A DNA stretch of 64,000 bases from a virus. The DNA is taken from the IMG/VR virus record IMGVR_UViG_3300050014_000899, one strand, 5' to 3'. Below are positions 7,606 to 62,079 of this stretch, piece by piece. The notes beneath the pieces were generated by a model. It had not been told where the DNA came from. It made no database searches and saw only the letters and a program-made list of their open reading frames with translations. A program made the translations under genes and the position numbers. Each line of letters opens with the position of its first letter. Within the stretch, counting starts at the first letter, position 1.

Positions 7606-8133
7606 ATGAAGGAGCAGAAGGAAGAACGAATTCTTAATTATACGATTAAGGATTTATCAATAAAAGAAATTTGTCCAAATTCGATCGATAATGTTATTAT
7701 TTCCATATCCGATGACAGCCAATATCATATGGATTTGCCCTCTACCATGGTTGGGGACAGTTTTAAAAGATGGCTACAAGGAATAGGGGGAATTTTCAAA
7801 AAAGATATATTTAATTTTCTTAAAGGAAAGCCCCATGGCAAATATATCCTTATGGAAGGCCCCGATGAAAGATCTATTCTTAGATTAATTGAAGATGAAG
7901 AATTTCCGGATTTTGAATTAAAGCATCTCGTTCATGGAAAAGTTAAAGATAAACCCTATATGATCCTGCGTACACTTGGACCAGACCAGAGCTTGACAAA
8001 TAATCAAAGATATATATTAGAGAACCCTATCATTGAGGAACCCGAAGAAGAGGTTTCTGATGAAAATGATAATATGCCTCCAAAGAATGAGGAGGACAGT
8101 TTAAGCCATTCAGTATCCCTGTTCACGGATTAA
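7606..8133 (+). CDS. hypothetical protein
   Basis: 175 aa ORF. Confidence 0.7.
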   Translation: MKEQKEERILNYTIKDLSIKEICPNSIDNVIISISDDSQYHMDLPSTMVGDSFKRWLQGIGGIFKKDIFNFLKGKPHGKYILMEGPDERSILRLIEDEEFPDFELKHLVHGKVKDKPYMILRTLGPDQSLTNNQRYILENPIIEEPEEEVSDENDNMPPKNEEDSLSHSVSLFTD

Positions 8134-8230
8134 ACTTCTAAATTCCCAAACTAAAATAATTTTGCACTGACTTCGATGGGAATACTATTCGCAGCTGGGT
8201 AGAGTTATACACTAAACTAAATTGTAAATT

Positions 8231-9034
8231 ATGAATCAATTAAAGAAACAAATTTCCCAAAAGGAAGCGACTACATCAAAACCCCTCAAGAATTTGCTTG
8301 CTTTTAATGGCTTCACATCACTTAAAAAACTCCTTAAGGGATTTCTATTATTATCCCTAATTTTAATTGCAAGCCTTGTAGTATCTGCTTTAATCGAGAT
8401 ACCTACACATGCATCATCTAGTCCTGAAAACGTTTCGGCGGTTGCCCAAGGTATGATGATAGATAATGTTAGGAAGGTATCCACGGAAAGACTGATAAAG
8501 GAAGTTGATATTTATATTAAAAGTATCGCTCCTACAACGAAACTAAAAGCCGAGGTCATTGTTGATCAATGCGAAAGATACAATATAGATATTATCTTCG
8601 TAATTGCTCAAGGGATTCTGGAGTCCCATCTCGGAACAAAAGGAATGGCTATAACGACCAATTCTGTTTGGAACGTTGGAACTTATGATGATGGTAAAAT
8701 ACATTACTCATATAAAGATCCAAACGAATCGTTAGAACCGTATTTAAAATTAATTAAAAAAGTCTATCTTGTAAGAGTATCTCAAAGCGGAGATACAATT
8801 CATAGAGGTCTTCAAAATCTCATACAGGATCGAGGCTTTGTCAACATCGAAGGAAAAAGATACGCTACTTCGACTTCATACGAAAATATGTTACGTAATA
8901 TGATCATTAAGGTTAGTATGGAATCCTCCATAAATCTATATCAAGGAATTGCTAATTTATCTAACACAGATATTATAAGCTTCTTCTCGATTGGATCGCA
9001 AGCAAAGGATTCCCTAAACTTAGCTAAATTATAG
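8231..9034 (+). CDS. membrane-anchored lysozyme-like (glucosaminidase-type) cell wall hydrolase
   Basis: N-terminal hydrophobic helix; IAQGILESHLGT...NSVWNVG...YAT motifs. Confidence 0.6.
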   Translation: MNQLKKQISQKEATTSKPLKNLLAFNGFTSLKKLLKGFLLLSLILIASLVVSALIEIPTHASSSPENVSAVAQGMMIDNVRKVSTERLIKEVDIYIKSIAPTTKLKAEVIVDQCERYNIDIIFVIAQGILESHLGTKGMAITTNSVWNVGTYDDGKIHYSYKDPNESLEPYLKLIKKVYLVRVSQSGDTIHRGLQNLIQDRGFVNIEGKRYATSTSYENMLRNMIIKVSMESSINLYQGIANLSNTDIISFFSIGSQAKDSLNLAKL

Positions 9035-9056
9035 GTTTAGGAGAACTTATATAACG

Positions 9057-9081
9057 AAACCCCCTTAATTGGGGGTTTTTT
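9057..9081 (+). terminator. intrinsic terminator
   Basis: AAACCCCC-TTAATT-GGGGGTTTTTT. Confidence 0.7.
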
Positions 9082-9105
9082 GTGAATAGATATAAGAAAA
9101 ACATC

Positions 9106-9894
9106 ATGATAACAGGAACCTATAAATTTAATGTCAAAAGAAGTCCTATAGATAATAGAGACTTTAAAGTCGGAGCAATCTATCCCGATCAAGTTACTTT
9201 ACCCGTGGAATGGGATTATCGAAAACAAATGAATCCTATTAGAGATCAGGGTCAAGAGGGATCTTGCTTAGCTGAAACAGTATCTGCTATGAAAGAATGG
9301 CAGGAATTAGTAGATCAGGGGTATAAGGGATATATGTCTTCCCAGTTTGTCTATAATCTTAGAGCAGATTATACAGAAGAAGGAATGGTTCCGAGAGATG
9401 GAATGAAAATACTCAATAAAATAGGAATTGTTCATGAAGACGTTTATCCATATGGAAAAATTGAACAACTCGATGCAAGTACTTTAAGTCCTAAAATCTT
9501 AACTTTAGCAGCTGCTAATAGAATATTAGGATATGCTCAAATAGATACCCTAGACAGCTTAAAAAAGGCCTTATTCGCTAACGGCCCATGTCTCATCACG
9601 TTTCCAGTTTACAACCCAGAAGTAATGGAATTCTGGAAGCCCACTAGTATTGGGCAGGAATCTTTAGGGGGTCATGCAGTTTGTGTAGCTGGATATTTAA
9701 AAGATAGATTCATCATTCGTAACTCCTGGTCAAATACCTGGGGAGATGCTGGATACACTTATTTCCCATTTACAGAATGGGGGATGCACTGGGAAGCATG
9801 GACAGCTATGGACGAACATTCCAATATGAATGATCTAAATAAAAAGATTGATTCTCAAAAAGTTTGTTTTTGGAAGAAACTATTTGGAAAATAA
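9106..9894 (+). CDS. papain-like C1 cysteine peptidase
   Basis: DQGQEGSC, GGHAV, IRNSW...WGDAGY motifs; ORF opens at 9082. Confidence 0.9.
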   Translation: MITGTYKFNVKRSPIDNRDFKVGAIYPDQVTLPVEWDYRKQMNPIRDQGQEGSCLAETVSAMKEWQELVDQGYKGYMSSQFVYNLRADYTEEGMVPRDGMKILNKIGIVHEDVYPYGKIEQLDASTLSPKILTLAAANRILGYAQIDTLDSLKKALFANGPCLITFPVYNPEVMEFWKPTSIGQESLGGHAVCVAGYLKDRFIIRNSWSNTWGDAGYTYFPFTEWGMHWEAWTAMDEHSNMNDLNKKIDSQKVCFWKKLFGK

Positions 9895-9944
9895 TTTTTT
9901 TTCTAAGGATCTTTTTCGTACATTTGTAATCTAAAAATCCAAAT

Positions 9945-10208
9945 ATGAGTGGAAAATCGTACACTATCAAATATGAAGTTCATTGTCAACTTCAGAATCT
10001 TTTTAATAAGGAGATAGTGGTTAAGAATTGTTTATCTGCCATGCATGCAAAAGCTAAATTAGATGATTATTGCAGAGGAAAATATGGTTTGGAGTATCAG
10101 TGTATCATCGTTACTTCCTGTGTAGAAAAATTTGATTTAAGTGGTTTTGGAGGTTTTGGAGATATATTTGGAAACGGATTTGGAGATTTATTTGGAGTAA
10201 AAAAATGA
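9945..10208 (+). CDS. hypothetical protein
   Basis: ORF after TACATTTG promoter; Gly/Phe-rich tail. Confidence 0.65.
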   Translation: MSGKSYTIKYEVHCQLQNLFNKEIVVKNCLSAMHAKAKLDDYCRGKYGLEYQCIIVTSCVEKFDLSGFGGFGDIFGNGFGDLFGVKK

Positions 10209-10531
10209 CAGAAGAAGAAAAAAACGCACAGCAAGCTCAGCAGCAAGGAAGACCAACCCATGTATTTTTTCAGTCATTTGGTATTAATAACCAAGGATCC
10301 GAAGAAATCCCGGAAGGACTTAAAAAATATTTAAGAAACGTTCTTGTATTTGAAATTGCGAATAATTGGCCTTTTGTTCGCTGTTTAATGGATAAATACA
10401 GAAATGGTATTTTAAAGGAGGTAGACCCATTAGAAAGGGATTGGTTCAATTTTATTATATCGAACCATGTTGATGTGGAAAAATACGGAAAGAATTCCGA
10501 TCAATTTGTTTCAGAATATATACAAAAATAA
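10205..10531 (+). CDS. hypothetical protein
   Basis: ORF, ATGA overlap. Confidence 0.65.
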   Translation: MTEEEKNAQQAQQQGRPTHVFFQSFGINNQGSEEIPEGLKKYLRNVLVFEIANNWPFVRCLMDKYRNGILKEVDPLERDWFNFIISNHVDVEKYGKNSDQFVSEYIQK

Positions 10532-10540
10532 GATCAATCT

Positions 10541-10768
10541 ATGAAAAATCTAGTTCCTCTTGTTCCTATTTCAAAAGTGTTCAGTATTATAGATTCATGT
10601 ACTAACACAGAACAATTAGCAGGATGTAAGAGATTAGCAACAGCTTATACTTCATTGGTTAAATCAAAAGGAGTTATTAATTCGGATTTAGTAGACGAAA
10701 CATTACAAATAAAGTTACAAGAGAAAAGAGAAGAAATAGAAATGTGTGAAAATTTTTACGCTAGGTAA
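10541..10768 (+). CDS. hypothetical protein
   Basis: ORF. Confidence 0.6.
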   Translation: MKNLVPLVPISKVFSIIDSCTNTEQLAGCKRLATAYTSLVKSKGVINSDLVDETLQIKLQEKREEIEMCENFYAR

Positions 10769-10824
10769 CAAAACTTTTCTACTTCTTGTGAGTATATACA
10801 TTACCAAACAACAAATTTTGTAAG

Positions 10825-10923
10825 ATGAAAAACTTCTTATCATATCAACCCTTAACATTAACCCTAACACAGGAGGAACAACTCCCATGTGGATTAGCGA
10901 AGGAGGAAATTGTGATATTTTAA
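10825..10923 (+). CDS. putative attenuator leader peptide 1 (MKNFLSYQPLTLTLTQEEQLPCGLAKEEIVIF)
   Basis: 32 codons followed by a terminator; codons match tRNA array 1. Confidence 0.6.
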   Translation: MKNFLSYQPLTLTLTQEEQLPCGLAKEEIVIF

Positions 10924-10951
10924 GTATTCATTACTACATTATATCTTATTC

Positions 10952-10983
10952 AAACCCTCCTCGGTCTTCCAAGGAGGGTTTTT
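10952..10983 (+). terminator. attenuator terminator 1
   Basis: AAACCCTCCT...AGGAGGGTTTTT hairpin; 5' arm can alternatively pair with CGAAGGAGG 10898-10906. Confidence 0.75.
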
Positions 10984-10986
10984 AAT

Positions 10987-11043
10987 TTTAACAAACTTTT
11001 AACGAAACAAATAATAGTTCTTTAAAATTTTTTAGTATATTTG
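10987..11043 (+). promoter_or_regulatory. promoter: TTTAAC direct repeat plus TATATTTG
   Basis: Repeat 10987-11003, -7 element 11036-11043. Confidence 0.7.
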
Positions 11044-11064
11044 CCATCTAATAACTATTTAAAA

Positions 11065-11391
11065 ATGGCAAAGAAAGATCATACACTATTAGAAATTGTG
11101 GATACCATTGCTGAATTATATCATGTAAGTCCACAAAATCTGCCGAACTTGATAGCTTCAGCGATTCAACGTATTCGGAAAGATCCCTCACGGGATGTTA
11201 AGGATGCTTTTATTTATGAAGGTGTTATTTTAACGACAGATGCAGAACTAATAGAACAAGCTATTTCAGAAGCAGGACTTTACGGTTTAGAAATCGAGGT
11301 CATGGCTTCAACAGTCCAATCGATATGGGAAGACCCCGAACTCGATTTATCAGTAGCTTTACAGTATGGTTTAAACGATTGGGATATTTGA
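11065..11391 (+). CDS. hypothetical protein
   Basis: ORF; ATG downstream of promoter. Confidence 0.7.
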   Translation: MAKKDHTLLEIVDTIAELYHVSPQNLPNLIASAIQRIRKDPSRDVKDAFIYEGVILTTDAELIEQAISEAGLYGLEIEVMASTVQSIWEDPELDLSVALQYGLNDWDI

Positions 11392-11418
11392 TGTGTTCAT
11401 ATTGATAATTTGAATTTC

Positions 11419-11452
11419 AAATCCCGGATCGTTAAAAAATTCGGGATTTTTT
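11419..11452 (+). terminator. intrinsic terminator
   Basis: AAATCCCGGA...TTCGGGATTTTTT. Confidence 0.65.
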
Positions 11453-11531
11453 GTCCCACGATCTTTGACGTATTGGCATTTAATCACAATATCATTCGAA
11501 CCTATCTAAATATATACAATAATAGGTTCGA

Positions 11532-12134
11532 ATGAAAAAATGTGAAAATTGTAATAAAGAGCATGATGGATCTTATGGATCCGGAAGATTTTGTTCTTCA
11601 AAATGTTCTAGAGGATTTAGTACAAAGAAAAAAAGAGCTGAAATAAACAAGCAGGTAAGTAAAAAAATTCAAGGAAGAATTTATAAAATCCCTTCAAATT
11701 TATGTTTATACTGCAATACTCCAACTCACACTAAATTTTGCTCTGTCGATTGTTATAAAGAATATCACAAAATGATTCGAACAGCATATGATAATTATAG
11801 AGTAAAGTGTCTTTTTAAGTTCAATGTATATGAATATCCTGATTATTTTGATTTGAAGTTGATAGAAAAACATGGCTGGTATTCCCCTACGAATAAAAAT
11901 AATAATTTAGATGGAATTTCTAGGGATCATTTATTTTCTGTTAAAGATGGATTTATTAATAATATAGATCCTTATTTAATATCGCATCCAGCAAATTGTA
12001 AATTAATAAAACATTTAGATAATCAAAAAAAATACTTTTATTCATCAATATCTCTGGAAGAATTAAAAAATCAAGTGGAAAATTTTAATGCACATGTGGC
12101 CGAGGGGTCCAAGGCACTGGTCTGCAAAACCTGA
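11532..12134 (+). CDS. HNH-like homing endonuclease with N-terminal Zn motif
   Basis: CENC.KEHDGSYGSGRFCS; SRDHLFSV...HPANC; 3' end overlaps tRNA-Cys. Confidence 0.7.
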   Translation: MKKCENCNKEHDGSYGSGRFCSSKCSRGFSTKKKRAEINKQVSKKIQGRIYKIPSNLCLYCNTPTHTKFCSVDCYKEYHKMIRTAYDNYRVKCLFKFNVYEYPDYFDLKLIEKHGWYSPTNKNNNLDGISRDHLFSVKDGFINNIDPYLISHPANCKLIKHLDNQKKYFYSSISLEELKNQVENFNAHVAEGSKALVCKT

Positions 12135-12164
12135 CAACCGTTGGTTCGAATCCAACCATGTGCT
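12090..12164 (+). tRNA. tRNA-Cys(GCA)
   Basis: GCACATG/CATGTGC acceptor, loop CTGCAAA, TTCGAAT T-loop, U73. Confidence 0.9.
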
Positions 12165-12176
12165 CAAATAAAAAAC

Positions 12177-12249
12177 AAGTTGTAGTAAGATAATAGCGTT
12201 ACTTCGAAACTGATTTGAAAAACACACGCTTGTTCAAATTTCTCAACTT
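12177..12249 (+). ncRNA. Y-RNA-like element A (minimal cargo)
   Basis: AAGTTG-TAGTAA...GTTACTTCG...AAAT-TTCT-CAACTT closing stem. Confidence 0.7.
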
Positions 12250-12257
12250 AAATTATA

Positions 12258-12375
12258 TGGGGAGCAATAACATGCTCTTTCGGTTTTCTTGGGCAACCAT
12301 AGTATGACTAGAGATACTTCGTAACTAGGATCAGTAAAATCTCAAAAGTTGGTGCAATTCCAGCCTCCCCCACCA
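12258..12375 (+). ncRNA. tRNA-like element with internal degenerate Y-like stem
   Basis: GGGGAG/CTCCCC acceptor, T-arm GTTGG-TGCAATT-CCAGC, ACCA end; internal TAGTAT...GATACTTCG. Confidence 0.5.
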
Positions 12376-12430
12376 AATGAAAGCAAGTTAAAAGTTCAAA
12401 CCGGGCAGAATCCGGATCTTGCTTATGAAT

Positions 12431-12592
12431 TAAACTGTAGTAAAGTCAAAAGTTACTTCGAAGCTTTGGGAGCCGGTGACCGCAAGGTCTTGAGGGTGCA
12501 AATCCTTCTACCCCCGCCATATTTTAAGGGGGTATGGTGAAATTAGTAAACACGCCGTATGAAAACACACTTTTAACAAATTTCTCAGTTTA
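12431..12592 (+). ncRNA. Y-RNA-like element B carrying a circularly permuted tRNA (TGG anticodon, long variable arm)
   Basis: Closing stem TAAACTG/CAGTTTA; order anticodon loop-V arm-T arm-TACCCCC-GCCA-linker-GGGGGTA-D arm. Confidence 0.8.
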
Positions 12593-12593
12593 T

Positions 12594-12665
12594 GCCTTCT
12601 TAGTTCTAAAGGTAAAATAGTTGACTTGTAATCATCAGTTATCAGTTCGATTCTGATAGAAGGCT
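12594..12665 (+). tRNA. tRNA-Thr(TGT)
   Basis: GCCTTCT/AGAAGGC, loop CTTGTAA. Confidence 0.85.
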
Positions 12666-12679
12666 CAAAAACATTAACA

Positions 12680-13060
12680 ATGAAAAATTGCGAGAATTGC
12701 GGTAAAATTCTTAATGACATTCGAAAAAAGTATTGCAATAATAAATGTCAAAAAGAACATGAATGGGAACTTAAGAAAGAAAGAATTAAGTTGGGCGAAA
12801 TAGAATCCCCTAAAGCTCTTAGAAGATTCACCATAGAAAGAGATGGAAAATCCTGCAAAATTTGCGGATTAGAAAAATGGAACGGTAAGGATATTCCTTT
12901 AGACATGGATCATATTGATGGAAATAATTCAAATAATTTTCCTATAAATTTAAGAATGATTTGTCCCAATTGTGATGCTCAAACAGATTTTTACAAAGGA
13001 AAAAACAAAGGAAGAGGCAGAGTATACAGAAGAAAACATCAAAATTGTCCCGTGGTGTAA
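12680..13060 (+). CDS. HNH endonuclease
   Basis: CKICG...DMDHIDGNNSNN...NLRMICPNCD. Confidence 0.9.
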   Translation: MKNCENCGKILNDIRKKYCNNKCQKEHEWELKKERIKLGEIESPKALRRFTIERDGKSCKICGLEKWNGKDIPLDMDHIDGNNSNNFPINLRMICPNCDAQTDFYKGKNKGRGRVYRRKHQNCPVV

Positions 13061-13119
13061 TTGGTTAACATATCTGACTTTGGATCAGATGAGTCTAGGT
13101 TCGAACCCTAGCGGGACAG
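13046..13119 (+). tRNA. tRNA-Gln(TTG)
   Basis: TGTCCCG/CGGGACA, loop CTTTGGA. Confidence 0.92.
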
Positions 13120-13129
13120 CAATAAAAAT

Positions 13130-13202
13130 CGAGGATGTGGTGTAACCCGGCAGCACATATGCTTTGGGAGCATAGGGCACAGTTCGAATCTGGCATCCTC
13201 GA
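13130..13202 (+). tRNA. tRNA-Pro(TGG)
   Basis: CGAGGATG/CATCCTCG, loop TTTGGGA. Confidence 0.85.
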
Positions 13203-13263
13203 CAATTTGAAACTAGTTTGTAGAACTTTTTACATAGTTACGTATATAAAATGAAAAGTAACT

Positions 13264-13773
13264 ATGGAATGCAAAAATTGTCAAAAAGAACATGATGGAA
13301 CTTATGGCTCCGGCTTCTTTTGTTCCGTCGAATGTGCTAGAGGATTTAGTCATAAACATTTTACATTAACAGACGATCAAAAACAAAATATTAGTAAAGC
13401 TCTTGAAAAAAGATGGAGGGATAATGATTTTAAAAATATTGATTGGGTTTTATCAGGAGCTAAAGGATCCTCAGGGAAATATAAAAAACCTGAAAATCTT
13501 CTTCAAGTAAGTTCCCGTACCATTGGCAAAATATTTTTAAGATTATTAAAAGAAGAAGGATTTGGATGTTCGAGATGTGGATGGAAAGAGGGTATTGGTG
13601 ATTTGCATCATATAAATGGTAAAAAAATTGAAAACCCAGATCATCATCAAAATTTGTCTTATTTATGCCCTAATTGCCATAGATTGGTTCATCAAAAAAA
13701 GATTGATAAAAACTCCTTAGTTTCTTTGGAAAAACAAATAGGAGATAAATGGAAAAAGTATTATTTTGGATAA
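13264..13773 (+). CDS. HNH endonuclease with N-terminal Zn motif
   Basis: CSRCGW...DLHHING...NLSYLCPNCH. Confidence 0.88.
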   Translation: MECKNCQKEHDGTYGSGFFCSVECARGFSHKHFTLTDDQKQNISKALEKRWRDNDFKNIDWVLSGAKGSSGKYKKPENLLQVSSRTIGKIFLRLLKEEGFGCSRCGWKEGIGDLHHINGKKIENPDHHQNLSYLCPNCHRLVHQKKIDKNSLVSLEKQIGDKWKKYYFG

Positions 13774-13776
13774 TTT

Positions 13777-13848
13777 GCCGACGATCCAGGGAGAAGCTGA
13801 GTCTGTAAAACTCTCGCTCGTTAGTGGTTCGAGATCCACCCGGCGGCA
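13777..13848 (+). tRNA. atypical tRNA, GTA anticodon (Tyr)
   Basis: GCCGACG/CGGCGGC, loop CTGTAAA; weak D arm, enlarged T-loop. Confidence 0.5.
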
Positions 13849-13855
13849 CAAAAAA

Positions 13856-14028
13856 GCGGGTATGGCGAAATGGGTAAACGCCCCTGTTTAGTAGTCTAAT
13901 TTGAATTCTAGAACAGTCAGTTTAGATGAGGAACGGGAGTTCAGCCAGAGAAAAATTGCTCAAGTGATCATGAGAGTGAAATTTCGATGGGAGATCTGAA
14001 ATTCGAGGTTCGATGCCTCGTACCCGCA
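13856..14028 (+). tRNA. tRNA-Leu(GAG)-like with anticodon-loop insertion and enlarged variable arm
   Basis: GCGGGTA/TACCCGC, Leu-type D arm; CCTGT-TT[~37 nt]GAGGA-ACGGG. Confidence 0.6.
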
Positions 14029-14244
14029 CAAAAAATCCAAGGAATTTATTCCCAAGGTAAACGTGTTAGAAAGCGTTTAATAATAAGGTGCGCCACCATT
14101 GAGGGGCGAGTGCCGCCTGGCTACCCATCAGGACTTTAGAAGATAATTTAAACCACCGCAGTTGATTTTTAAATTAGGAGGGGATAGTGGCGCTACAATG
14201 TTCTCTTAAACAGGCCGTCCGGCCTTATCCTAATCTTTTTACAC

Positions 14245-14317
14245 TGTCCTTTAGCGTAATTGGCAACGCGTCTGACTCTGGATCAGGAGACTCTAGGTTC
14301 GAGCCCTAGAAGGACAA
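14245..14317 (+). tRNA. tRNA-Gln(CTG)
   Basis: TGTCCTT/AAGGACA, loop CTCTGGA. Confidence 0.92.
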
Positions 14318-14478
14318 CATAAGCCGTTTCGGGGTTAAAGGTTAAGGACACCCCTGCGGGAGAGAACACGGGATTCACTGATTGTTGATATAATCAGGGT
14401 TCTCTTGACAAAAAAACCGATCAATCATCGCTAATCGGATTGATAAAGTCTGCAGTAGGACGAGGCTACCTACTAACT

Positions 14479-14553
14479 CGGGATGTTCCACAGATGGCTA
14501 CATGGGCTGGTTCCGGAGACCAGTGTTCTTGGGTTCGAATCCCAATATCCCGA
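14479..14553 (+). tRNA. tRNA-Pro(CGG), atypical (C33, A37)
   Basis: CGGGATG/TATCCCG, loop TCCGGAG. Confidence 0.7.
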
Positions 14554-14562
14554 CAAATTTCC

Positions 14563-14645
14563 GCGGATGTGGTGGAATGGTAGACACGCATGGCTTAGGA
14601 CCATGTGCTAGTGATAGCGTGGGGGTTCGAGTCCCTTCATCCGTA
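14563..14645 (+). tRNA. tRNA-Leu(TAG)
   Basis: Class II, loop CTTAGGA. Confidence 0.92.
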
Positions 14646-14693
14646 CAAAACTTTAATGGTAGACAAGCATATAATAATCAAAACTTGTTTACC

Positions 14694-15113
14694 ATGGATA
14701 AAGAAAAAATAATCGAATCTTGCAAAAGTTCTTTGACAATGGCTGAAGCTGCTAAAAAAGCAGGCATTCCCCATATGACTTTTAAAAGATATGCAATCCA
14801 ATTAGGAGTTTATAAACCTAATCAAGCTGGAATAGGAACATATCGACCTATTACTCCTTTAGAAGATGTATTTTCTGGAAAAGCTAAAATGAGATCCTAT
14901 AATGTTAAATCTCGTCTTATCAGAGAGGGATATAAAGATGGAAAATGTGAAGAATGTCATCTTGATGAATGGAATGGCAAATCTTTAGTTATGGAACTTC
15001 ATCATAAAGATGGAAATAATAGAAACTCAAAATTAGAAAATTTACAAATATTATGTCCTAATTGTCATAGTCAAACTCCGACTTTTAGAAGACAAACAAC
15101 AAAACAACAGTAG
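14694..15113 (+). CDS. HNH endonuclease
   Basis: CEECH...ELHHKDGNNRN...NLQILCPNCHSQT; the upstream in-frame extension is tRNA sequence. Confidence 0.9.
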   Translation: MDKEKIIESCKSSLTMAEAAKKAGIPHMTFKRYAIQLGVYKPNQAGIGTYRPITPLEDVFSGKAKMRSYNVKSRLIREGYKDGKCEECHLDEWNGKSLVMELHHKDGNNRNSKLENLQILCPNCHSQTPTFRRQTTKQQ

Positions 15114-15228
15114 TAACTTAGAGGGTTACATCGCAAATGGTAAAGCAACTAGTCCGAAAAACTGGTGACAGAAATGTCATTTTGGGTTCAAGTCCCAATG
15201 TAAATCGCTCTCTAAAATTTTCTCTGTT
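15106..15228 (+). ncRNA. Y-RNA-like element C carrying a Ser-like tRNA body without a free acceptor end
   Basis: AACAG-TAGTAA...GTTACATCG, D, anticodon (CCGAAAA), V and T arms, ...TTCT-CTGTT. Confidence 0.75.
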
Positions 15229-15233
15229 ATTTT

Positions 15234-15317
15234 GCTCCTGTGGTGGAATTGGTAGACACGGTAGCCTTAAGAGCTACTGCCTCAACAGGCGTGTAGGTTC
15301 GAGTCCTATCAGGAGTA
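15234..15317 (+). tRNA. tRNA-Leu(TAA)
   Basis: Class II, loop CTTAAGA. Confidence 0.92.
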
Positions 15318-15322
15318 CAATT

Positions 15323-15397
15323 CGAGATGTTATGCAGATGGCTATACAACAGCGCTCTGGAAGCGTTGGTTCGTGGGTTCGAATCCCACTATCTCGA
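15323..15397 (+). tRNA. tRNA-Pro(TGG), atypical (C33, A37)
   Basis: CGAGATG/TATCTCG, loop TCTGGAA; paralogue of 14479. Confidence 0.65.
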
Positions 15398-15402
15398 CAA
15401 AA

Positions 15403-15475
15403 CGGAATGTGGCGCAGTTGGTAGCGTACTAGCATGGGGTGCTAGGGGTCGTGGATTCGAGTTCCACCATTCCGA
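15403..15475 (+). tRNA. tRNA-Pro(GGG)
   Basis: CGGAATG/CATTCCG, loop ATGGGGT. Confidence 0.9.
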
Positions 15476-15855
15476 CTAAACTTTAACGAATAATATTTTT
15501 TTCCTAAGGAATTTAATTGTATATTTGTCCCATAGATAAAGAAGAAGGAAACCAAGGATCATCTTTGAGTAATCAGAATGAAGCCTTGCTGCAGACCCCA
15601 AATTTTTTAAAGCGCAAAAGGCAGCAGTTACTCCTGAATGAAGCTCTCGGGCGAAGGAATACACGGGTTTAACGGAAACGTATCAGGCTTTATTTATTTT
15701 TAAGATCTTTGAAAAAATTAAAAATATTCGTACCTGTCAATCAGGATCCACTTCCCAGATTTAGGAGACTGGGCTGCCGATAGATTGCAACCTTCGGTAA
15801 ACAAAACTCTACCAGGAACTAATCCACCTGGGGGTTGAATGAGTACGATAATCAT

Positions 15856-16090
15856 TTAAGAAGCTCCAATTGAAGAGATCTGCGGTCGCCAAACCTTGGC
15901 CAACATGATCGTCCATAGGGACTACTGGAGGCGGTATAATCGACGGGACATCTCGTTAGGGAAACCCAACAATGGTTATACAGCATGTGGAAGGTAGGAT
16001 ACCAGGCTTCAACCCCATCGCGCAGTCTTCGGACATCGGGGTTTAGTTCCAAGAGTAAAGGGATGTGAGGACTAATTGGTACTTCTTAAT
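15856..16090 (+). ncRNA. unassigned structured ncRNA
   Basis: GC-rich; ends pair (TTAAGAAG/CTTCTTAA, CCAATT/AATTGG); internal GAAA and TTCG tetraloop hairpins. Confidence 0.5.
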
Positions 16091-16092
16091 TT

Positions 16093-16173
16093 GGCGACGT
16101 TGAGCAATTGGTTGGCTCGCCTGACTGTAGATCAGGTCCTTCGGGCTTGGGGGTTCGAGTCCCTCCGGCGCCA
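16093..16173 (+). tRNA. tRNA-Tyr(GTA)
   Basis: Class II, loop CTGTAGA. Confidence 0.9.
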
Positions 16174-16175
16174 CA

Positions 16176-16508
16176 ATGGAAAACAGAAGTTTAGAAACGA
16201 TATGGGGTAACATTGACTATACCTATATTAAAGACGAAACATATCCAAACGGATTGTTGGTTCTTAATGGATCAATAGTTCATAAGGAATGGAGGGGAAC
16301 CGGAAAATTTAAAGAGATGTTGAGAATGTTATTCTTTCAATATCCGGAAGGAACAGAATTACAAGCTGCTGTAATAAGCAGTAAATTAAGCCCATTATTT
16401 GAAAGGATGAAATTTGTAAGAGTAAAACGAATTGAAATCTGGGGCGAATGTGCCAATACAAAGAAATTTAAAGGATACATTTATAAAGGTATCCAAAACG
16501 ATATTTAA
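16176..16508 (+). CDS. hypothetical protein (possible GNAT fold)
   Basis: VHKEWRGTG resembles the acetyl-CoA binding motif. Confidence 0.55.
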   Translation: MENRSLETIWGNIDYTYIKDETYPNGLLVLNGSIVHKEWRGTGKFKEMLRMLFFQYPEGTELQAAVISSKLSPLFERMKFVRVKRIEIWGECANTKKFKGYIYKGIQNDI

Positions 16509-16749
16509 AGAAGCTGCCTCGTTTAAGTGTTATCCATGCAGCAAAAGCACGTCAGCAACTTACGGAGCTGAAGGTCCGGTCATCATGGATCCCCGGGAAA
16601 CGAGCGAATATTGAAAAGAAGAGGGCTGATAAAGCGACTTCAATAGAAGCGTTGAAACAGCTGAAGAACCGGTTGGGGTTCTTGGGATAGTCTTAATGAA
16701 AGTTAAGTTCCCGGTGAGTACTCGTTCAAGAGGTTTTCTGAAATCAAAT

Positions 16750-16830
16750 GTTGCGTTATACAAGCGGTCAAAGTGGCCAGACCTTCAATCTGGTTCTTAC
16801 GATTCGCGGGTTCGAATCCCGCACGCAATA
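16750..16830 (+). tRNA. tRNA-Glu(TTC), atypical (C33, long variable loop)
   Basis: GTTGCGT/ACGCAAT, CCAGA-CCTTCAA-TCTGG. Confidence 0.7.
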
Positions 16831-17009
16831 CAAAGTAATAGTGTAAGAAACCCCAAAGCACAAAGGAGTCATGACTGGAGTGTAAGTAGGTACGAGTTCC
16901 AATTACGTTTTTGATTTGTGTACAGAATTAAACTCGGAGCTATTGGAAAATGTGAAAGCACAACAGGAGATCCCTGGCGGGTCCGGTAGAATTCCGGTTA
17001 CTTTACGAC

Positions 17010-17097
17010 GCTCAGATGGTGGAATTGGTAGACACGTTGGTTCGAGGGGCCAATGCTCGTAATGGGTTTGGGGGTTCGACTCCCCCTCTGGGTACCA
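17010..17097 (+). tRNA. tRNA-Leu(GAG) (C33)
   Basis: Class II, loop TCGAGGG, encoded CCA. Confidence 0.85.
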
Positions 17098-17122
17098 ATA
17101 TATAGATAAAATAAGCATCTAT

Positions 17123-17491
17123 ATGAAAAAACAAATTAGGATTGATAGGGAGAAAGAAACTCCTGGCGTTCTTTTCCAAATTGAAACAGGGGAACTTGAA
17201 ATTAAAGGAAGATCATTTCCAGCAGAAGGGGATACATTTTATAAACCTATCATAGAAGCTGTAGACGATGTTACTTCCGATAGTATTACAGTAAAACTTG
17301 AATTTGAATATGCCAATACTTCTACTGTTCGAGAAATTGTTAAACTTCTTAAAAAAGTTAAAGCAGCGAACAAAAAATCAAAAGTCATCTTTGTTTATGA
17401 AGAAGGGGACAATGATATGCAAGAATTTGGTGAAGATCTAGAATCAGTTTCGGGATTACCATTTGTTTATGTGATTAATCCTGAAGACTAA
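17123..17491 (+). CDS. SiaC / DUF1987 family protein
   Basis: TPGV.F...LEIKGRSFP...FYKPI...EYANTST...YEEGD.DMQE.GED. Confidence 0.8.
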   Translation: MKKQIRIDREKETPGVLFQIETGELEIKGRSFPAEGDTFYKPIIEAVDDVTSDSITVKLEFEYANTSTVREIVKLLKKVKAANKKSKVIFVYEEGDNDMQEFGEDLESVSGLPFVYVINPED

Positions 17492-17586
17492 GATATACCT
17501 GGCGCATCTCTACGGGAATCGGCCGATTTCCAAAACGATGTATGGGTTGACCTTGATAACACTTCGGCCGAGGGGTTAAAGGGGAA

Positions 17587-17657
17587 TTTTCGGTAGTTTA
17601 GTGGCAGAACACCCGCTGCGAAAGCGGGGGACATGGGTTCGAATCCCATTCGGAGAG
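17587..17657 (+). tRNA. atypical tRNA, CGA anticodon (Ser?), short variable loop
   Basis: D and T arms canonical; loop TGCGAAA; weak acceptor stem. Confidence 0.45.
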
Positions 17658-17663
17658 CAATAT

Positions 17664-17737
17664 GCTCGGTTCTTCTAGTGGTAGGAAGGGTGCTTCTCAG
17701 GCATCAGACAAGGATTCGATTTCCTTACCGAGTACCA
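17664..17737 (+). tRNA. tRNA-Glu(CTC)
   Basis: GCTCGGT/ACCGAGT, loop TTCTCAG, CCA. Confidence 0.88.
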
Positions 17738-17780
17738 CCTTTTTCGCCTCGTTTTGACGGATATATAAATAAAATATATC

Positions 17781-18419
17781 ATGCCAAGACGAGAGAAAAA
17801 TAAATTTAATTTTATTTATAAAACTACTAGCTTAATTAATGGTAGATTTTATATAGGTATGCATTCAACAAATACTTTGGAAGATGGATATTTGGGATCT
17901 GGAAAACTTTTAAGATATTCTGTAAAAAAATATGGATCAGAAAATCATAAAATTGAAAGATTAGAGTTCTTTGAAGATCGAATAAAATTAGCAGAAAGAG
18001 AATCTGAAATTGTAAATGAGAGTCTTTTGAAAGATCCTTTATGCATGAATTTAGGATTAGGGGGTCAAGGAGGAATTCTTAATGAAGAACATTCTAAAAA
18101 TCTTAGACATGGTGCTTCCATTTTTTTAAAAAATCAATGGAAAGAAAATTATAAAAAGATGTGTCAGCAAAATTCAGAAAAAGTTAAAATAGCTCATAAA
18201 AATGGATCTTTGCGATACGATAATATGCTGGGAAAACATCATTCAGAAGAATCTAAAAAGAATATTGGTAAGAGCAATTCGGTATCTCAAAAAGGAGAAA
18301 AAAATTCTCAATTTGGTACATGCTGGATTATTCGATCAAATGAAAACAAAAAAATTAATTTATCAGAATTAGAATCCTATTTATCTCAAGGTTGGATAAA
18401 AGGAAGAAAATTAAAATGA
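17781..18419 (+). CDS. GIY-YIG (Seg-like) homing endonuclease
   Basis: FIYKTT...YIGMH...YLGSG; NUMOD3 GKHHSEESK. Confidence 0.9.
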   Translation: MPRREKNKFNFIYKTTSLINGRFYIGMHSTNTLEDGYLGSGKLLRYSVKKYGSENHKIERLEFFEDRIKLAERESEIVNESLLKDPLCMNLGLGGQGGILNEEHSKNLRHGASIFLKNQWKENYKKMCQQNSEKVKIAHKNGSLRYDNMLGKHHSEESKKNIGKSNSVSQKGEKNSQFGTCWIIRSNENKKINLSELESYLSQGWIKGRKLK

Positions 18420-18423
18420 TAAT

Positions 18424-18498
18424 GGCCCGTTCGTCTAGATGGCTCAGGACATCGCCCTTTCACGGCGGAGATCATGGATTCGAATTCCATACGGGCTA
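18424..18498 (+). tRNA. tRNA-Glu(TTC)
   Basis: GGCCCGT/ACGGGCT, loop CTTTCAC. Confidence 0.93.
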
Positions 18499-18652
18499 CA
18501 CATCATAGCCCTATCAAGAAGCTGTTGATAGACCACTTTGCCATCATTCCATCAAAGACAGGAGTGTCCCAAATTGGGGTTAAAGGAAATAAGACAAGGT
18601 TATGATTATTTTTGCAATACTCTAACGCGTTTGCGAGATATATAAAGTAAAA

Positions 18653-19285
18653 ATGTATATTTGTAAATGTGGAAGAGAATTTGAAACTCCAAATTCGTTA
18701 AATGCTCATTATTCTCATTGTTTAATTTATAGAGAGGGTAAAGATCCAATTAACAGATTTAAAGGAAAAGAAAATTGGAATAAAGGATTATCCAAAAAAT
18801 TAGACAAGAGGGTTTCCCAAAATGGCAAAAGTTTATCCGATAATTTTAAATCAGGTAAAACAATTCCCGGATTTTTAGGAAAACATCATGATAAGGAAAC
18901 AAAAGAGAATCTTAGTTTAAAACAATCCCTTCATCCTTCTGGGGGAATATGCAAATGGATTGAATATAAAAAGAAGGACGGAAGTGTTATACATCTTCAA
19001 GGAACTTGGGAAGTTAAATTTGCAGAATATTTGGATTCTAATAATGTTGAATGGGTAAAGCCTGGATGCGGCAAATTAATTTATTCTTTTTTCTGGATAG
19101 ATGATTTAGGAATAAGAAGAACATATACCCCGGATTTTTATGTTTTTGATTGGAAGAAATATTTTGAGATTAAGGGATATTGGAGAGAAAAGGATAAGAT
19201 CAAAATGAAAAAAGTTTTAGAACAAAATAAAATTAATCTTCAAATTATTGAAAAGAAGGGGATGAAAGAATTGAATTTAATTTAA
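18653..19285 (+). CDS. PD-(D/E)XK (TnsA-like) endonuclease with NUMOD3
   Basis: GTWE.KFA; YTPDFYV...EIKG. Confidence 0.75.
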   Translation: MYICKCGREFETPNSLNAHYSHCLIYREGKDPINRFKGKENWNKGLSKKLDKRVSQNGKSLSDNFKSGKTIPGFLGKHHDKETKENLSLKQSLHPSGGICKWIEYKKKDGSVIHLQGTWEVKFAEYLDSNNVEWVKPGCGKLIYSFFWIDDLGIRRTYTPDFYVFDWKKYFEIKGYWREKDKIKMKKVLEQNKINLQIIEKKGMKELNLI

Positions 19286-19288
19286 CAC

Positions 19289-19371
19289 GCCCTCATGATG
19301 GAAATGGGTAGACATACGGGACTCAAAATCCCGTGCTTTTTAGCGTGTGGGCTCGAATCCCACTGAGGGCA
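19289..19371 (+). tRNA. tRNA-Leu(CAA)
   Basis: GCCCTCA/TGAGGGC, loop CTCAAAA. Confidence 0.9.
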
Positions 19372-19377
19372 CAATTT

Positions 19378-19434
19378 TTTAACGATTTTTTAACAAAAAA
19401 CATTTTAGTATTTGGAAAACTTTCTGTATATTTG
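19378..19434 (+). promoter_or_regulatory. promoter: TTTAAC direct repeat plus TATATTTG
   Basis: Repeat 19378-19394, -7 element 19427-19434. Confidence 0.7.
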
Positions 19435-19520
19435 ATCTATTAAAACAAACAAACGTTCTTTAAGAATTCATTTATAGGATAAGCGGATTAGTACGATTAT
19501 TAACCAAAAAATCCTAAAAA

Positions 19521-19736
19521 ATGAAAGCATTCTTATTTTTCGTAACTTCTGATGACACTTGGGAACTTTGCGAATCTATTTATACGGTAACTGCTGAATC
19601 GAAAGAAGAAGCGGAATCGATATTTAAGCTTCGAGAAGGAGGATATTTTTCATCGGAAAAAAGGATCACGAATATCCAGGAAATAGATTTATCTGTAAAA
19701 GGACAAGTCCAAATCCAGGAATATATGATCGAATAG
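19521..19736 (+). CDS. hypothetical protein
   Basis: ORF. Confidence 0.65.
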   Translation: MKAFLFFVTSDDTWELCESIYTVTAESKEEAESIFKLREGGYFSSEKRITNIQEIDLSVKGQVQIQEYMIE

Positions 19737-20033
19737 GTTCTTTGATTAAGCCGTTCGTATTGTAGAGTTGTTTAGGAGCCATGACGGTTACCAGGCTGAT
19801 AACATCTCTTCACTTTATTTTTATGCTGGTGGAAAACTAAGCAGGAGAGTCAACTGAGCTGCGGGATATTAACATACTAGGAAGTAAATCCAGGAGCTCT
19901 TTTAAAATCTAATCTGGGAGGGATGAATGCTTATACCTGATGCAACGACTGGCCGGTCACTGCGTTATAGGTCCAAAAATGGTTCAAGTCCATACGCCGG
20001 TGCTATTATCAAATGTTCTTTGAAAAAATTATA

Positions 20034-20333
20034 ATCCGTAGTAAGTTAAAGAGTTACTTCGACTAACGGCCCAAAGGTAGTACCGACACCGCGAGGTGCC
20101 CACGAATACTCAGAAGGGTATCGTTTCACAGATCTCTCGTAGATGCTGGAGACGGGTAACGATGGAACATATAGAAGTTTTTTGTATAAGTCAGGAGGAC
20201 TAATAATCCGTATACACTGTGAAAATGAAAAACAACAGGCCTGGGTTTAAAACTGATAGCAATATTAGTGTGCCTATAAAGTTCCAAGCGACCGGCCACC
20301 CAAGATAATCACTCTAAACAAGGATTCTCGGAT
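20034..20333 (+). ncRNA. Y-RNA-like element D (about 245 nt structured cargo)
   Basis: ATCCG-TAGTAA...GAGTTACTTCG...ACTCT...TTCT-CGGAT. Confidence 0.7.
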
Positions 20334-20341
20334 AACATTAC

Positions 20342-20416
20342 AATTCGTGGTAAGACAAAGGGTTACTTCGCCATCTATGTATAGCCAAAACACACTCTAG
20401 TCAAATTTCCCGGATT
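20342..20416 (+). ncRNA. Y-RNA-like element E (minimal cargo)
   Basis: G-TGGTAA...TTCC-C compensatory variant; GGTTACTTCG. Confidence 0.7.
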
Positions 20417-20430
20417 CAATTCTAAAAGAA

Positions 20431-20510
20431 ACCCATGGTGAGACAAAGAGTTACTTCGTACAATTCCTAAAAAACTGTAATAAAAGATCATCTCTAGTCA
20501 ATTTCCTGGT
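20431..20510 (+). ncRNA. Y-RNA-like element F (minimal cargo)
   Basis: CCA-TGGTGA...GAGTTACTTCG...CTCTAGTC-AAT-TTCC-TGG. Confidence 0.7.
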
Positions 20511-20533
20511 AATTCTTTTCTTTAAAAAATACG

Positions 20534-20630
20534 CGGTTTCCTGCCTGTTAGTACGCAAGCTTTGGCAGCTCTGATATAATATTAGCTATAAAAATCAGAT
20601 GAGGGGTGTGAATCCCCGGAACCGAGACCA
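20534..20630 (+). ncRNA. tRNA-like element with expanded anticodon loop (copy 1)
   Basis: CGGTTTCC/GGAACCG acceptor, T-arm GGGG-TGTGAAT-CCCC, ends AGACCA. Confidence 0.55.
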
Positions 20631-20633
20631 TAC

Positions 20634-20724
20634 GGCAGCCTCCGATGAGAGAGACATTCGGCCCCAGTTCAATATTGGCCATAAAAACTGGGAGATGGGT
20701 TAAAATCCCAGGGTCGCCAGACCA
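20634..20724 (+). ncRNA. tRNA-like element with expanded anticodon loop (copy 2)
   Basis: GGCAGCCT/GGGTCGCC, T-arm TGGG-TTAAAAT-CCCA, ends AGACCA. Confidence 0.55.
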
Positions 20725-20968
20725 CAAGGAAGATCACGCAGCTTCGTACTGCAAGCCGGAAGTTTACTTCCAGATCTTCCCTCTGAGCACGGTGCCTGTG
20801 TCAAGCACAGGATCTAGTTATAGACAAATAGCCGCTTTTTAGCCTTCTCGATAGTGTGCGTAACAAATCGGGTCCAGCGTGATAAGCTCTACGGACAGGC
20901 TTAAGGTTAGCTTCAATCTTCTAAGATTTGCAGTCATGAGCATAAAAACGGTTCGAAAGGTTTTTGGG

Positions 20969-21002
20969 AGAGGTTCTTAAATAAATTAGGACCTCTTTTT
21001 TT
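20969..21002 (+). terminator. intrinsic terminator ending ncRNA cluster
   Basis: AGAGGTTCT...AGGACCTCTTTTTTT. Confidence 0.7.
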
Positions 21003-47705: not shown

Positions 47706-47827
47706 AATTAATGATGAACTGGATGCATTTGGAAATTGATAAATTATGATAAAAGGATTTGCACCCTTATGTCCTTTATGAAATAGCCAAAAACTTTATT
47801 TATTTTCGGATATATAAAATAAAAACA

Positions 47828-59367: not shown

Positions 59368-59443
59368 AAATAATTTTACATTAAGTTAAAACTTTTCGGG
59401 AAAATCCCGTAATATATAGAGAAACTAATAAATACTACAGCAA

Positions 59444-59548
59444 ATGACAAGGCGTGCAAATATGGATAATTTCGTGGATTGGGGCTTTAATAGAGCAGCC
59501 AATAAAGACGGAGGTTATGGATGCCCGCTAAGGTGGAGAGGTATTTAA
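59444..59548 (+). CDS. putative attenuator leader peptide 2 (MTRRANMDNFVDWGFNRAANKDGGYGCPLRWRGI)
   Basis: 34 codons directly before a terminator and tRNA array 2. Confidence 0.62.
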   Translation: MTRRANMDNFVDWGFNRAANKDGGYGCPLRWRGI

Positions 59549-59575
59549 CGAGGTAGTTAAAAAAATCTTTATATT

Positions 59576-59608
59576 AAGCGGGATCCCAACAGGTCCCGCT
59601 TTTCTTTT
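59576..59608 (+). terminator. attenuator terminator 2
   Basis: AAGCGGGATC/GGTCCCGCTT plus T-tract; 5' arm can alternatively pair with GGATGCCCGCT 59519-59529. Confidence 0.8.
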
Positions 59609-59675: not shown

Positions 59676-59762
59676 GGTCTCAGGAGCTGCTAGGCGTGGC
59701 TGCCGGACTGTCACTCCGGAACAGGTAAAACTGACAGGTGGGTTCGAATCCCATTGAGACCG
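59676..59762 (+). tRNA. tRNA-Asp(GTC) with long variable arm
   Basis: GGTCTCA/TGAGACC, loop CTGTCAC. Confidence 0.8.
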
Positions 59763-60828: not shown

Positions 60829-61548
60829 ATGAAGAGTTGCGAAAATTGTCAAAAAGAGCATGAAGGAACTTATGGTTCTGGAAGATTTTGTTCAGCTGAA
60901 TGTGCTAGGGGATTTAGCACAAAAGAAAAACGTTCTTTGATAAATGAAAAAATAAGCAAAAAAATGAAAGGATCGGGACATTCTGATATAAAAATAATTT
61001 GTCCTATATGCCAAACAGAATTTGAAGTTTCATGGAATAAAAGAAATCAAAAATTTTGTTCACGAAATTGTTCAATGAGATTTTCTAATTCTCAACCAGA
61101 AAATATAAAAAATTTATCTTTAAAAAGAATCAACAAAATACTTAAAGGACAAGTAAATGATTATGGTATAAAGATGATATATAAATTCAAAAATAAGGAT
61201 ATTAAATGCGATTCAAAAATAGAATTTGCTTGTTTAAATTTTTTTGAAACTAAAGAGGCATCAGAGATGGAAAGATGCAATCTAATTATTGAATATAAGG
61301 ATAAAGATAAAATAAGAAGATTTAATCCGGATTTTAAAATAAAAATAGATAATAATATTTATATTGTTGAAGTTAAGAGTTATATGAGTATTAAATCTAT
61401 AAATGAAAAATGGCGAAATTATAATGAATTATCTAAATTGAAAAAAGAAGCTTTAATAAATTTTTGTCAATTAAATAACTATATTCCCTTTTGGTTTACA
61501 AAAGATTTAAACAGAAATTTTTATAATAATGTTTCGGTCGTACTATAA
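60829..61548 (+). CDS. PD-(D/E)XK (TnsA-like) endonuclease with N-terminal Zn motif
   Basis: CENC.KEHEGTYGSGRFCS; FNPDF...VEVKS. Confidence 0.75.
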   Translation: MKSCENCQKEHEGTYGSGRFCSAECARGFSTKEKRSLINEKISKKMKGSGHSDIKIICPICQTEFEVSWNKRNQKFCSRNCSMRFSNSQPENIKNLSLKRINKILKGQVNDYGIKMIYKFKNKDIKCDSKIEFACLNFFETKEASEMERCNLIIEYKDKDKIRRFNPDFKIKIDNNIYIVEVKSYMSIKSINEKWRNYNELSKLKKEALINFCQLNNYIPFWFTKDLNRNFYNNVSVVL

Positions 61549-62003: not shown

Positions 62004-62079
62004 AGCGACATAGCTCAGTGTGAGAGCGCTCCCGTTCATAGGGAGAGGTGCGGAGGTTCAATTCCTTCTGTCGCTACCA
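62004..62079 (+). tRNA. atypical tRNA, loop GTTCATA (TCA by canonical count; CAT off-register)
   Basis: AGCGACA/TGTCGCT-A-CCA; CTCCC/GGGAG stem. Confidence 0.6.

Follow-up and report, generated by a model that had tools for sequence, protein, structure and literature searches.

A conserved leader unit before a phage tRNA array as a candidate multivalent transcription attenuator

We describe a small leader unit (positions 10762-10983; unit 1) of an uncultured large phage, which lies upstream of a tRNA array (array 1) and whose codons mirror the tRNAs encoded there. Unit 1 consists of a promoter-like element (P1), a short leader ORF (sORF1), a segment complementary to a terminator arm, and the intrinsic terminator itself (T1). 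Nearly all codons in the larger part of sORF1 are ones that array 1 can read, the arrangement is conserved and co-varies among relatives, and a sister unit with a complementary codon set stands before a second array. Taking these data together, we consider it quite probable that unit 1 is a ribosome-mediated transcription attenuator, the leader ORF of which tests the decoding capacity for array-1 codons. Transcription towards the array-1 tRNAs would probably be raised when the leader codons are decoded slowly. Whether unit 1 gates array 1 itself on demand appears to us about evenly balanced.

The window, that is, the whole stretch of 64,000 nt that was analysed, belongs to IMG/VR record IMGVR_UViG_3300050014_000899. 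Its DNA is AT-rich (33-39% G+C), and its sole database similarities are short matches to the Lak Prevotella megaphages and other huge phages. The CheckV completeness of related contigs (5% for 22 kb and 15% for 60 kb) implies a genome of approximately 400 kb. Because only one of the 71 long ORFs has a Shine-Dalgarno-like core and TAnnTTTG boxes are overrepresented 5′ of genes, the host is probably of the Bacteroidota type. There was no clear sign of stop-codon recoding in the window, where the coding density is 72.5%, compared with 75.6% and 74.3% under TGA and TAG read-through, respectively.

Anatomy of unit 1 and its codon match to array 1

An earlier note on this DNA had claimed a leader ORF, a complementarity between 10898-10906 and 10956-10963, and a terminator, and we found all three in place (Table 1). 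The complementarity comprises 6 bp, a 1-nt bulge and 2 bp, and the 3′ end of the pairing strand (B) lies 14 nt from the stop codon of sORF1. The leader in front of sORF1 is A-rich and carries no Shine-Dalgarno sequence. The T1 hairpin (10954-10979) has a predicted energy of -16.3 kcal/mol and shows compensatory pairs among relatives. The helix between the start codon and the segment after the stop codon appears in the minimum-free-energy folds of 9 of the 12 lineages and co-varies with the bases after the AUG; the fold of unit 1 as a whole is stable (z = -3.0). An Rfam scan of positions 8000-21000 at E <= 1 returned tRNA-like matches exclusively, with none at 10760-11000. An overlapping ORF (10887-10985) was rejected as a gene, its length not being conserved in relatives.

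P1 overlaps the stop codon of the upstream gene (10541-10768) and is conserved in relatives. Three copies of the pattern AAAACTTT-N10-22-TATATA are present in the window, where 0.05 would be expected, and two of these copies head the two small-ORF units. Copies with an N12-18 spacer lie at 10762-10798, 47790-47816 and 59381-59418 of the window and at 1501-1532 of the relative L082. The two copies in leader units have TARGT in front, one window copy sits 5′ of an endonuclease-like gene, and the copy in L082 sits 5′ of a hairpin and a cold-shock protein gene.

Table 1. Positions of unit 1, the elements between T1 and array 1, and sister unit 2 within the window
Feature	Position	Strand	Remarks
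Promoter-like element P1	10762-10798	+	TAGGT, 3 nt, AAAACTTT, 15 nt, TATATA; putative promoter
Leader ORF sORF1	10825-10923	+	32 codons; start and stop codons kept in 17 loci of ~12 lineages
Putative sensing block	10834-10890	+	sORF1 codons 4-22; 17/19 decodable by array-1 anticodons
Candidate antiterminator strand B	10897-10907	+	sORF1 codons 25-28; purine segment; pairs with the 5′ arm of T1
Anti-start segment UUCAU	10927-10931	+	predicted to pair with the start-codon region 10825-10829
Intrinsic terminator T1	10954-10983	+	5′ arm (C) 10954-10964, loop 10965-10968, 3′ arm (D) 10969-10979, T run 10979-10983
Promoter-like element P2	11016-11043	+	perfect Bacteroidota-type -7 box TAnnTTTG at 11036-11043; in all lineages; putative promoter
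Conserved small gene	11065-11391	+	108 aa here; 60-aa core in relatives; always between leader unit and array 1
Second hairpin T2 with T run	11420-11453	+	8-bp stem, 13-nt loop
Conserved 17-nt motif	11460-11476	+	GATCTTTGAC..TATTGG; 5-8 nt before the first tRNA in relatives
Homing-endonuclease-like gene (phrog_23051)	11532-12134	+	inserted before tRNA-Cys; absent at the equivalent site in relatives
tRNA array 1	12090-19372	+	18 ARAGORN calls: Cys, Thr, Gln, Pro, Leu, Tyr, Glu, a weak Phe and an atypical Ser-like tRNA
Sister unit 2	59381-59603	+	same promoter type, sORF2, B segment, terminator, then tRNA-Asp
Leader ORF sORF2	59444-59548	+	34 codons; leader ORF of unit 2
B segment of unit 2	59524-59529	+	included in the B/C swap test
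Terminator of unit 2	59578-59603	+	tRNA-Asp at 59676, 70 nt on

The isotypes that the earlier note had listed for array 1 were recovered exactly by both ARAGORN and Rfam, with the addition of a weak Phe(GAA) call (15123-15208; 24.9 bits in Rfam, below threshold) and a 'Ser'(CGA) call of 72 nt. The array has 16 distinct anticodons, able to read 23 codons under strict wobble, and these codons account for 36% of codon usage in the window. Codons 4-22 of sORF1 specify F, L, S, Y, Q, P, T, E and C exclusively, and array 1 decodes 17 of these 19 codons (binomial P = 2.2e-6 with the codon usage of the window as background); the two misses are TCA (Ser) and ACC (Thr), for which array 1 has no decoder under strict wobble. 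The other two frames of the same bases scored 3/19 and 6/19, and sORF1 scored 2/19 against array 2. The low off-frame scores rule out the base composition of this G-poor block as the cause of the match. The correspondence between leader codons and array anticodons proposed in the earlier note thus withstood a chance test with low off-frame and array-2 controls.

We then placed the block against the rest of the window. Among 47,194 stop-free 19-codon windows in six frames, a score of 17 was reached only at sORF1 and in four overlapping antisense windows of one frame near 11680, which leaves the sORF1 block as the sole plus-strand window of the 64 kb with this score. The block also touches 13 of the 16 array-1 anticodons, compared with a mean of 9.7 in random draws from decodable codons (P = 0.03); with Watson-Crick pairing alone it touches 11 (P = 0.007). 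The length of the amino-acid run was rejected as a test in its own right, being weaker evidence than the codon test, since runs of array-1 amino acids of 23 and 21, longer than that of sORF1, were found in non-coding minus-strand frames.

The region before array 1 and sister unit 2

The earlier note had cautioned that a promoter, an ORF and another terminator separate the attenuator from the first tRNA, and the promoter-like motif (P2), the ORF and the hairpin (T2) are indeed present. The ORF is the conserved small gene, for which no Pfam, PHROG or Atlas family was found; it carries a 48-aa insertion in the window phage and is split by an inserted zinc-ribbon ORF in the L010 group (L010:10796-11368). 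The T2 stem co-varies between the window and relative L008, and relative L007 has a second P2-like element in place of T2. The 3′ arm of T2 is also able to pair with GUCCC after the T run (11420-11458), and the T2 site reads as a terminator on both strands. The 17-nt motif, which contains TTGACA and resembles the P2-like box minus its 11-nt spacer, is also found 5′ of the first tRNA in L008, L007 and L157. The 3′ end of the phrog_23051 gene overlaps tRNA-Cys. Given the promoter-like box, the gene, T2, the motif and the second P2-like box of L007, read-through of T1 may be just one input among several to array 1, or the small gene may be the main target of the read-through. If any of the intervening elements were a promoter, or if T2 were efficient, T1 read-through would be at most one input to the array.

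Sister unit 2 stands before array 2, at a distance of 130 nt from sORF2 to the array. Of codons 3-24 of sORF2, 20 of 22 are read by array 2 when the arrays of relatives are included (P = 3e-5), and 2 of 22 are read by array 1; across the 64-kb window, only sORF2 windows reach a score of 20. The visible part of array 2 cannot decode the Asn, Gly and Arg codons of sORF2, but the tRNAs concerned are present in array 2 of relatives. The codon set of sORF2 is complementary to that of sORF1. The switch geometry is the same in both units, and the B and C sequences are wholly different. In unit 2 and its relatives, the tRNAs follow 25-70 nt past the terminator with no gene between, an arrangement that, at the level of the whole system, favours gating of the arrays.

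The relatives of unit 2 (L195, L102, L112, L185, L125 and L128, with L157 as a distant form) were located through a promoter pattern. The gene upstream of unit 2 led to no relatives in IMG/VR, and the protein homologues that were found were not syntenic. Patterns based on tRNAs were rejected because the tRNAs are too diverged, and a search for the part of array 2 past the window end by means of identical proteins gave short contigs only. A short motif similar to the 17-nt motif before array 1 lies 1-2 nt before tRNA-Phe in the unit-2 relatives.

These data bear on the possibility, which we regard as unlikely, that unit 1 is a real attenuator but controls the small gene only, with array 1 using signals of its own (P2 or the tRNA-adjacent motif). 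The codon match would then tune the small protein, perhaps a tRNA-related factor, to the decoding capacity. The small gene does lie directly behind T1 in every lineage, T2 comes after it in clade A (see below), L007 has its second P2-like element before the array, and the conserved motif adjoins the first tRNA. However, the leader mirrors the array rather than the codons of the small gene, no recognisable family was found for the small protein, and the layout of unit 2 and its relatives, in which the tRNAs come straight after the terminator, has no place for such a gene.

Conservation and switch pairing among relatives

Relatives of unit 1 were found with the conserved small gene as the query in IMG/VR and in JGI/ENA metagenomes; a 15-mer scan gave mostly chance matches, which were removed by BLAST. 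The 17 loci thus obtained represent approximately 12 lineages and share the order promoter-like element, small ORF, terminator, P2-like box, 60-aa gene and array, and array 1 of the relatives starts with Cys, Thr or Gln, Gln and Pro. At L068:400-491, the 3′ end of another tRNA lies directly 5′ of the leader unit and replaces the usual protein gene, which indicates that the unit moves with the array and not with the upstream operon.

In all lineages, the leader ORF has 27-33 codons with a start and a stop codon, and its indels are all in frame. The leader peptides fall into three clades (A, B and C), which have little in common beyond a Y-x-Y spacing and an E-Q-L-P motif that is encoded by varying synonymous codons across clades. 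The block ahead of B is confined to array-1 amino acids in each clade, bar one Asn codon inside the block in clade A; these amino acids account for 15/15 positions in L073, 14/15 in L070 and 20 consecutive positions in L068. Counted as minimal changes within clade A, there are 12 synonymous and 7 non-synonymous ones in the sensing block, against 2 synonymous and 14 non-synonymous ones in the tail with B. The block is thus under constraint for its coding content, and the tail for some other property.

The comparison of leaders and arrays in related phages, which the earlier note had put forward as a check, bore out its reading: the ORF and the amino-acid set are kept and there is some co-variation, with a codon match looser than in the window. 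The fraction of codons decodable by the visible array of the same phage is 12-13 of 19-20 in clade A, 16/23 in L007 and 13/15 in L073, and clade A leaders contain Phe and Ser codons that have no tRNA in the visible array. Co-variation was seen for Phe and Thr. The arrays of clade B have Phe and lack Thr, and the leaders contain two to three Phe codons and one Thr codon, whereas the arrays of clades A and C have Thr and lack Phe, and the leaders contain two to three Thr codons and at most one Phe codon. In the distant unit-2-type relative L157, His occurs in the leader and tRNA-His in the array.

In the window, the duplex between B and the 5′ arm of the terminator (C) has an energy of -13.0 kcal/mol (RNAduplex), which is equalled by 2% of random 58-nt windows of the same DNA (p 0.02). 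Every lineage has a segment complementary to the terminator 5′ arm, the 3′ end of which lies 7-14 nt (7 or 13-14) before the stop codon. The B:C duplex energies range from -8.9 to -18.8 kcal/mol across lineages, with a significance that is modest lineage by lineage (p 0.005-0.22). RNAalifold, applied to the whole unit, recovered the terminator alone because MAFFT misaligns the divergent clades. Therefore, we assessed the co-variation of B and C by a swap test on duplex energies, in which B of each lineage was paired with the terminator arms of other lineages and compared with the pairing to its own arm. Pairing was better with the own arm than with foreign arms, with p = 0.015 for unit 1 alone and p = 5e-5 when all 11 units were included.

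The effect of a ribosome on this pairing was modelled by masking a 28-nt ribosome footprint in folds of the nascent RNA that extended as far as the terminator loop. In this folding model, B stays paired with the terminator arm when the ribosome stalls anywhere from codon 2 to codon ~21, and the arm becomes free when the ribosome is located within the last third of the ORF or at the stop codon. The restricted codon run ends 0-4 codons past this boundary in all lineages. Predicted folds with no ribosome leave the terminator arm free in the window, L008 and L010, and pair it with B in most other lineages. This suggests that, unlike in trp, an untranslated leader would be antiterminated in most lineages, and the logic may be two-state, in which smooth translation leads to termination, and not the three-state scheme of trp. 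The 'classic antiterminator layout' of the earlier note thus holds for the B:C pairing, which is kept and co-varying, but its likeness to trp may not extend to the behaviour of the untranslated leader, as predicted for most lineages.

The conservation data also bear on a second alternative, namely that the ORF encodes a conserved trans-acting micro-protein with its own promoter and terminator and resembles the array by chance or from another cause. We consider this improbable. Purifying selection acts on the ORF, E-Q-L-P is kept with synonymous variation across clades, and the unit does resemble a self-contained small gene; however, outside the motif the sequence turns over and yet stays within the amino-acid set, the tail evolves like RNA and not like protein, and the terminator-complementary segment keeps a fixed distance from the stop codon. 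Moreover, a micro-protein would leave unexplained both the codon-level P of ~2e-6 with its clean cross- and off-frame controls and the second, unrelated peptide that mirrors the other array. Least probable of all is that the reading frame is incidental and that the unit represents a structured small RNA or simply a terminator at the end of an operon. This would suit the stable fold (z = -3.0), the long-range helix that encloses the ORF and hides the start codon, and a T1 that would also terminate transcripts of the upstream genes. It is at odds with the retention, in all lineages, of an ORF (27-33 codons) whose indels are in frame and whose changes show a synonymous excess, with the match of the proposed frame alone to the array, and with the lack of an Rfam family match.

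Putative mechanism and relation to known attenuators

Overall, we provide a putative mechanism for unit 1 as a leader-peptide attenuator, in which coupling of transcription and translation in the host is assumed. Transcription would start at P1, and a ribosome would load on the unstructured, A-rich leader free of a Shine-Dalgarno sequence and translate the 32 codons. A ribosome that reaches the last third of the ORF or the stop codon without delay would cover B or would just have unwound it; in either case, T1 would fold, and a transcript of ~170 nt would end there. If the ribosome lags at any of codons ~4-22, B would be free and would pair with C as soon as C is made. T1 would then be blocked, and the polymerase would continue into the small gene and through or past T2 towards the tRNAs. 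The lag would be caused by scarcity of a matching charged tRNA, the leader codons sampling 13 of the 16 array anticodons, and the net outcome would be a demand-driven negative feedback on the phage's own tRNA supply. The anatomy, the codon match, the conservation, the co-variation and the sister unit come from computation, whereas translation of the leader, use of P1, the efficiency of termination at T1, the link between T1 read-through and transcription of the array, and the physiological trigger are inferred.

The earlier note had read the leader as a multi-codon sensor that turns on the tRNA array when host tRNAs are depleted or cleaved. The sensor part of this reading is supported by the attenuator anatomy, the codon/array match, the conservation, the co-variation of B and C and the sister unit, while the activation of the array would follow from the mechanism just proposed. 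The trigger could be a loss of host tRNAs through depletion or cleavage in particular, or it could be a slowdown in decoding of any kind. With chances that we judge to be about equal either way, this phage clade divides the genetic code among separately attenuated arrays, at least two of them in the window, each leader polling nearly every isoacceptor of its own array, so that each tRNA set would be made on demand when the host pool falls; such a system would amount to a closed-loop tRNA homeostat.

Attenuation of the trp/his type relies on ribosome stalling in the leader. Multivalent leaders are known from enterobacteria, where ilvGMEDA responds to Ile, Leu and Val and thr responds to Thr and Ile, in addition to the his, trp and pheA leaders. 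The mechanism class of unit 1 is classical leader-peptide attenuation, and the closest known cases are the multivalent ilv and thr leaders. In common with the leaders of amino-acid operons, the phage unit has a short, putatively translated leader with codons for what the operon supplies, a terminator, and an overlapping candidate antiterminator that would depend on the ribosome position, and the sensed quantity would be charged tRNA. In contrast, tRNA genes lie downstream here and biosynthetic enzymes there; the phage leaders cover 8-9 amino acids with about one codon per isoacceptor, whereas the operon leaders have runs of one to three amino acids; and the phage unit is without a clear anti-antiterminator (1:2). 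There is no sequence relation between the two, and the phage unit belongs to a phage of a host probably without Shine-Dalgarno use.

Other known systems share single aspects with unit 1. In E. coli, the phenylalanyl-tRNA synthetase genes pheST (pheM leader) are under attenuation, which likewise places a component of the translation apparatus under a leader peptide, but for a single amino acid and with a protein product and not a tRNA gene. T-box riboswitches bind uncharged tRNA directly via a specifier codon and need no translation; they also report the state of a specific tRNA through terminator/antiterminator control, but the unit 1 region (10760-11000) has no T-box match (Rfam, E <= 1). The his attenuator depends on hisR and hisT, that is, on tRNA gene dosage and modification. 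A pheA-leader reporter was derepressed 6- to 7-fold on loss of pheR, one of two tRNA-Phe genes, and leader-peptide attenuators respond to the amount and function of tRNA and not to the amino acid alone (PMC3082878). As judged from hisR, hisT, pheR and miaA, the his and pheA leaders thus report tRNA supply or function, which is the signal proposed for the phage unit; however, tRNA is the input only in those attenuators, whereas in the phage unit tRNA genes would also be the output, closing a feedback loop.

In full-text literature searches, we found no description of such attenuation control for tRNA genes, which agrees with the statement in the earlier note that none was known for phage tRNA arrays. 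Tried as a possible precedent, the E. coli tRNA-Phe gene pheV did not provide a Phe-rich leader: it has a promoter region of only ~105 nt and no leader ORF. Relative to the known leaders, the phage units would be new in three respects: their output consists of tRNA genes, they cover 8-9 amino acids with about one codon per isoacceptor, and they divide the code between arrays.

Dozens of tRNA genes can occur in large phages; the reason for this and the mode of their expression are still debated. These tRNAs have variously been proposed to serve in codon compensation, to replace a host pool that has been degraded and to allow escape from defences directed at tRNAs (PMC10264068, PMC11555353). If our reading is true, the phage would monitor its need for tRNAs and respond separately for each array, and tRNA sets would be made, for example, after host shut-off or after attack by tRNA-cleaving defence nucleases. 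Such homeostat control would be of a kind not known to be described for tRNA genes in any organism, and it would extend leader-peptide attenuation from amino-acid supply to tRNA supply, with the most multivalent sensor of this sort. The two units with their disjoint codon sets form a natural internal control, and such units could serve as compact, programmable sensors of codon-specific translation speed.

Several minor features were observed within the arrays. Genes of the zinc-ribbon/HNH-like type are scattered among the tRNAs (11532-12134, 12680-13060 and 60829-61548). Suppressor-type tRNAs occur inside the arrays, with the anticodon UCA in the window (62004-62079; called SeC by ARAGORN) and CUA in relatives (for example L008:15749-15824; called Pyl by ARAGORN). 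A conserved hairpin-like element, GGGGAGCAATAA..ATGCTCTTTCG (12259-12280), follows tRNA-Cys in several lineages, including L008 and L007.
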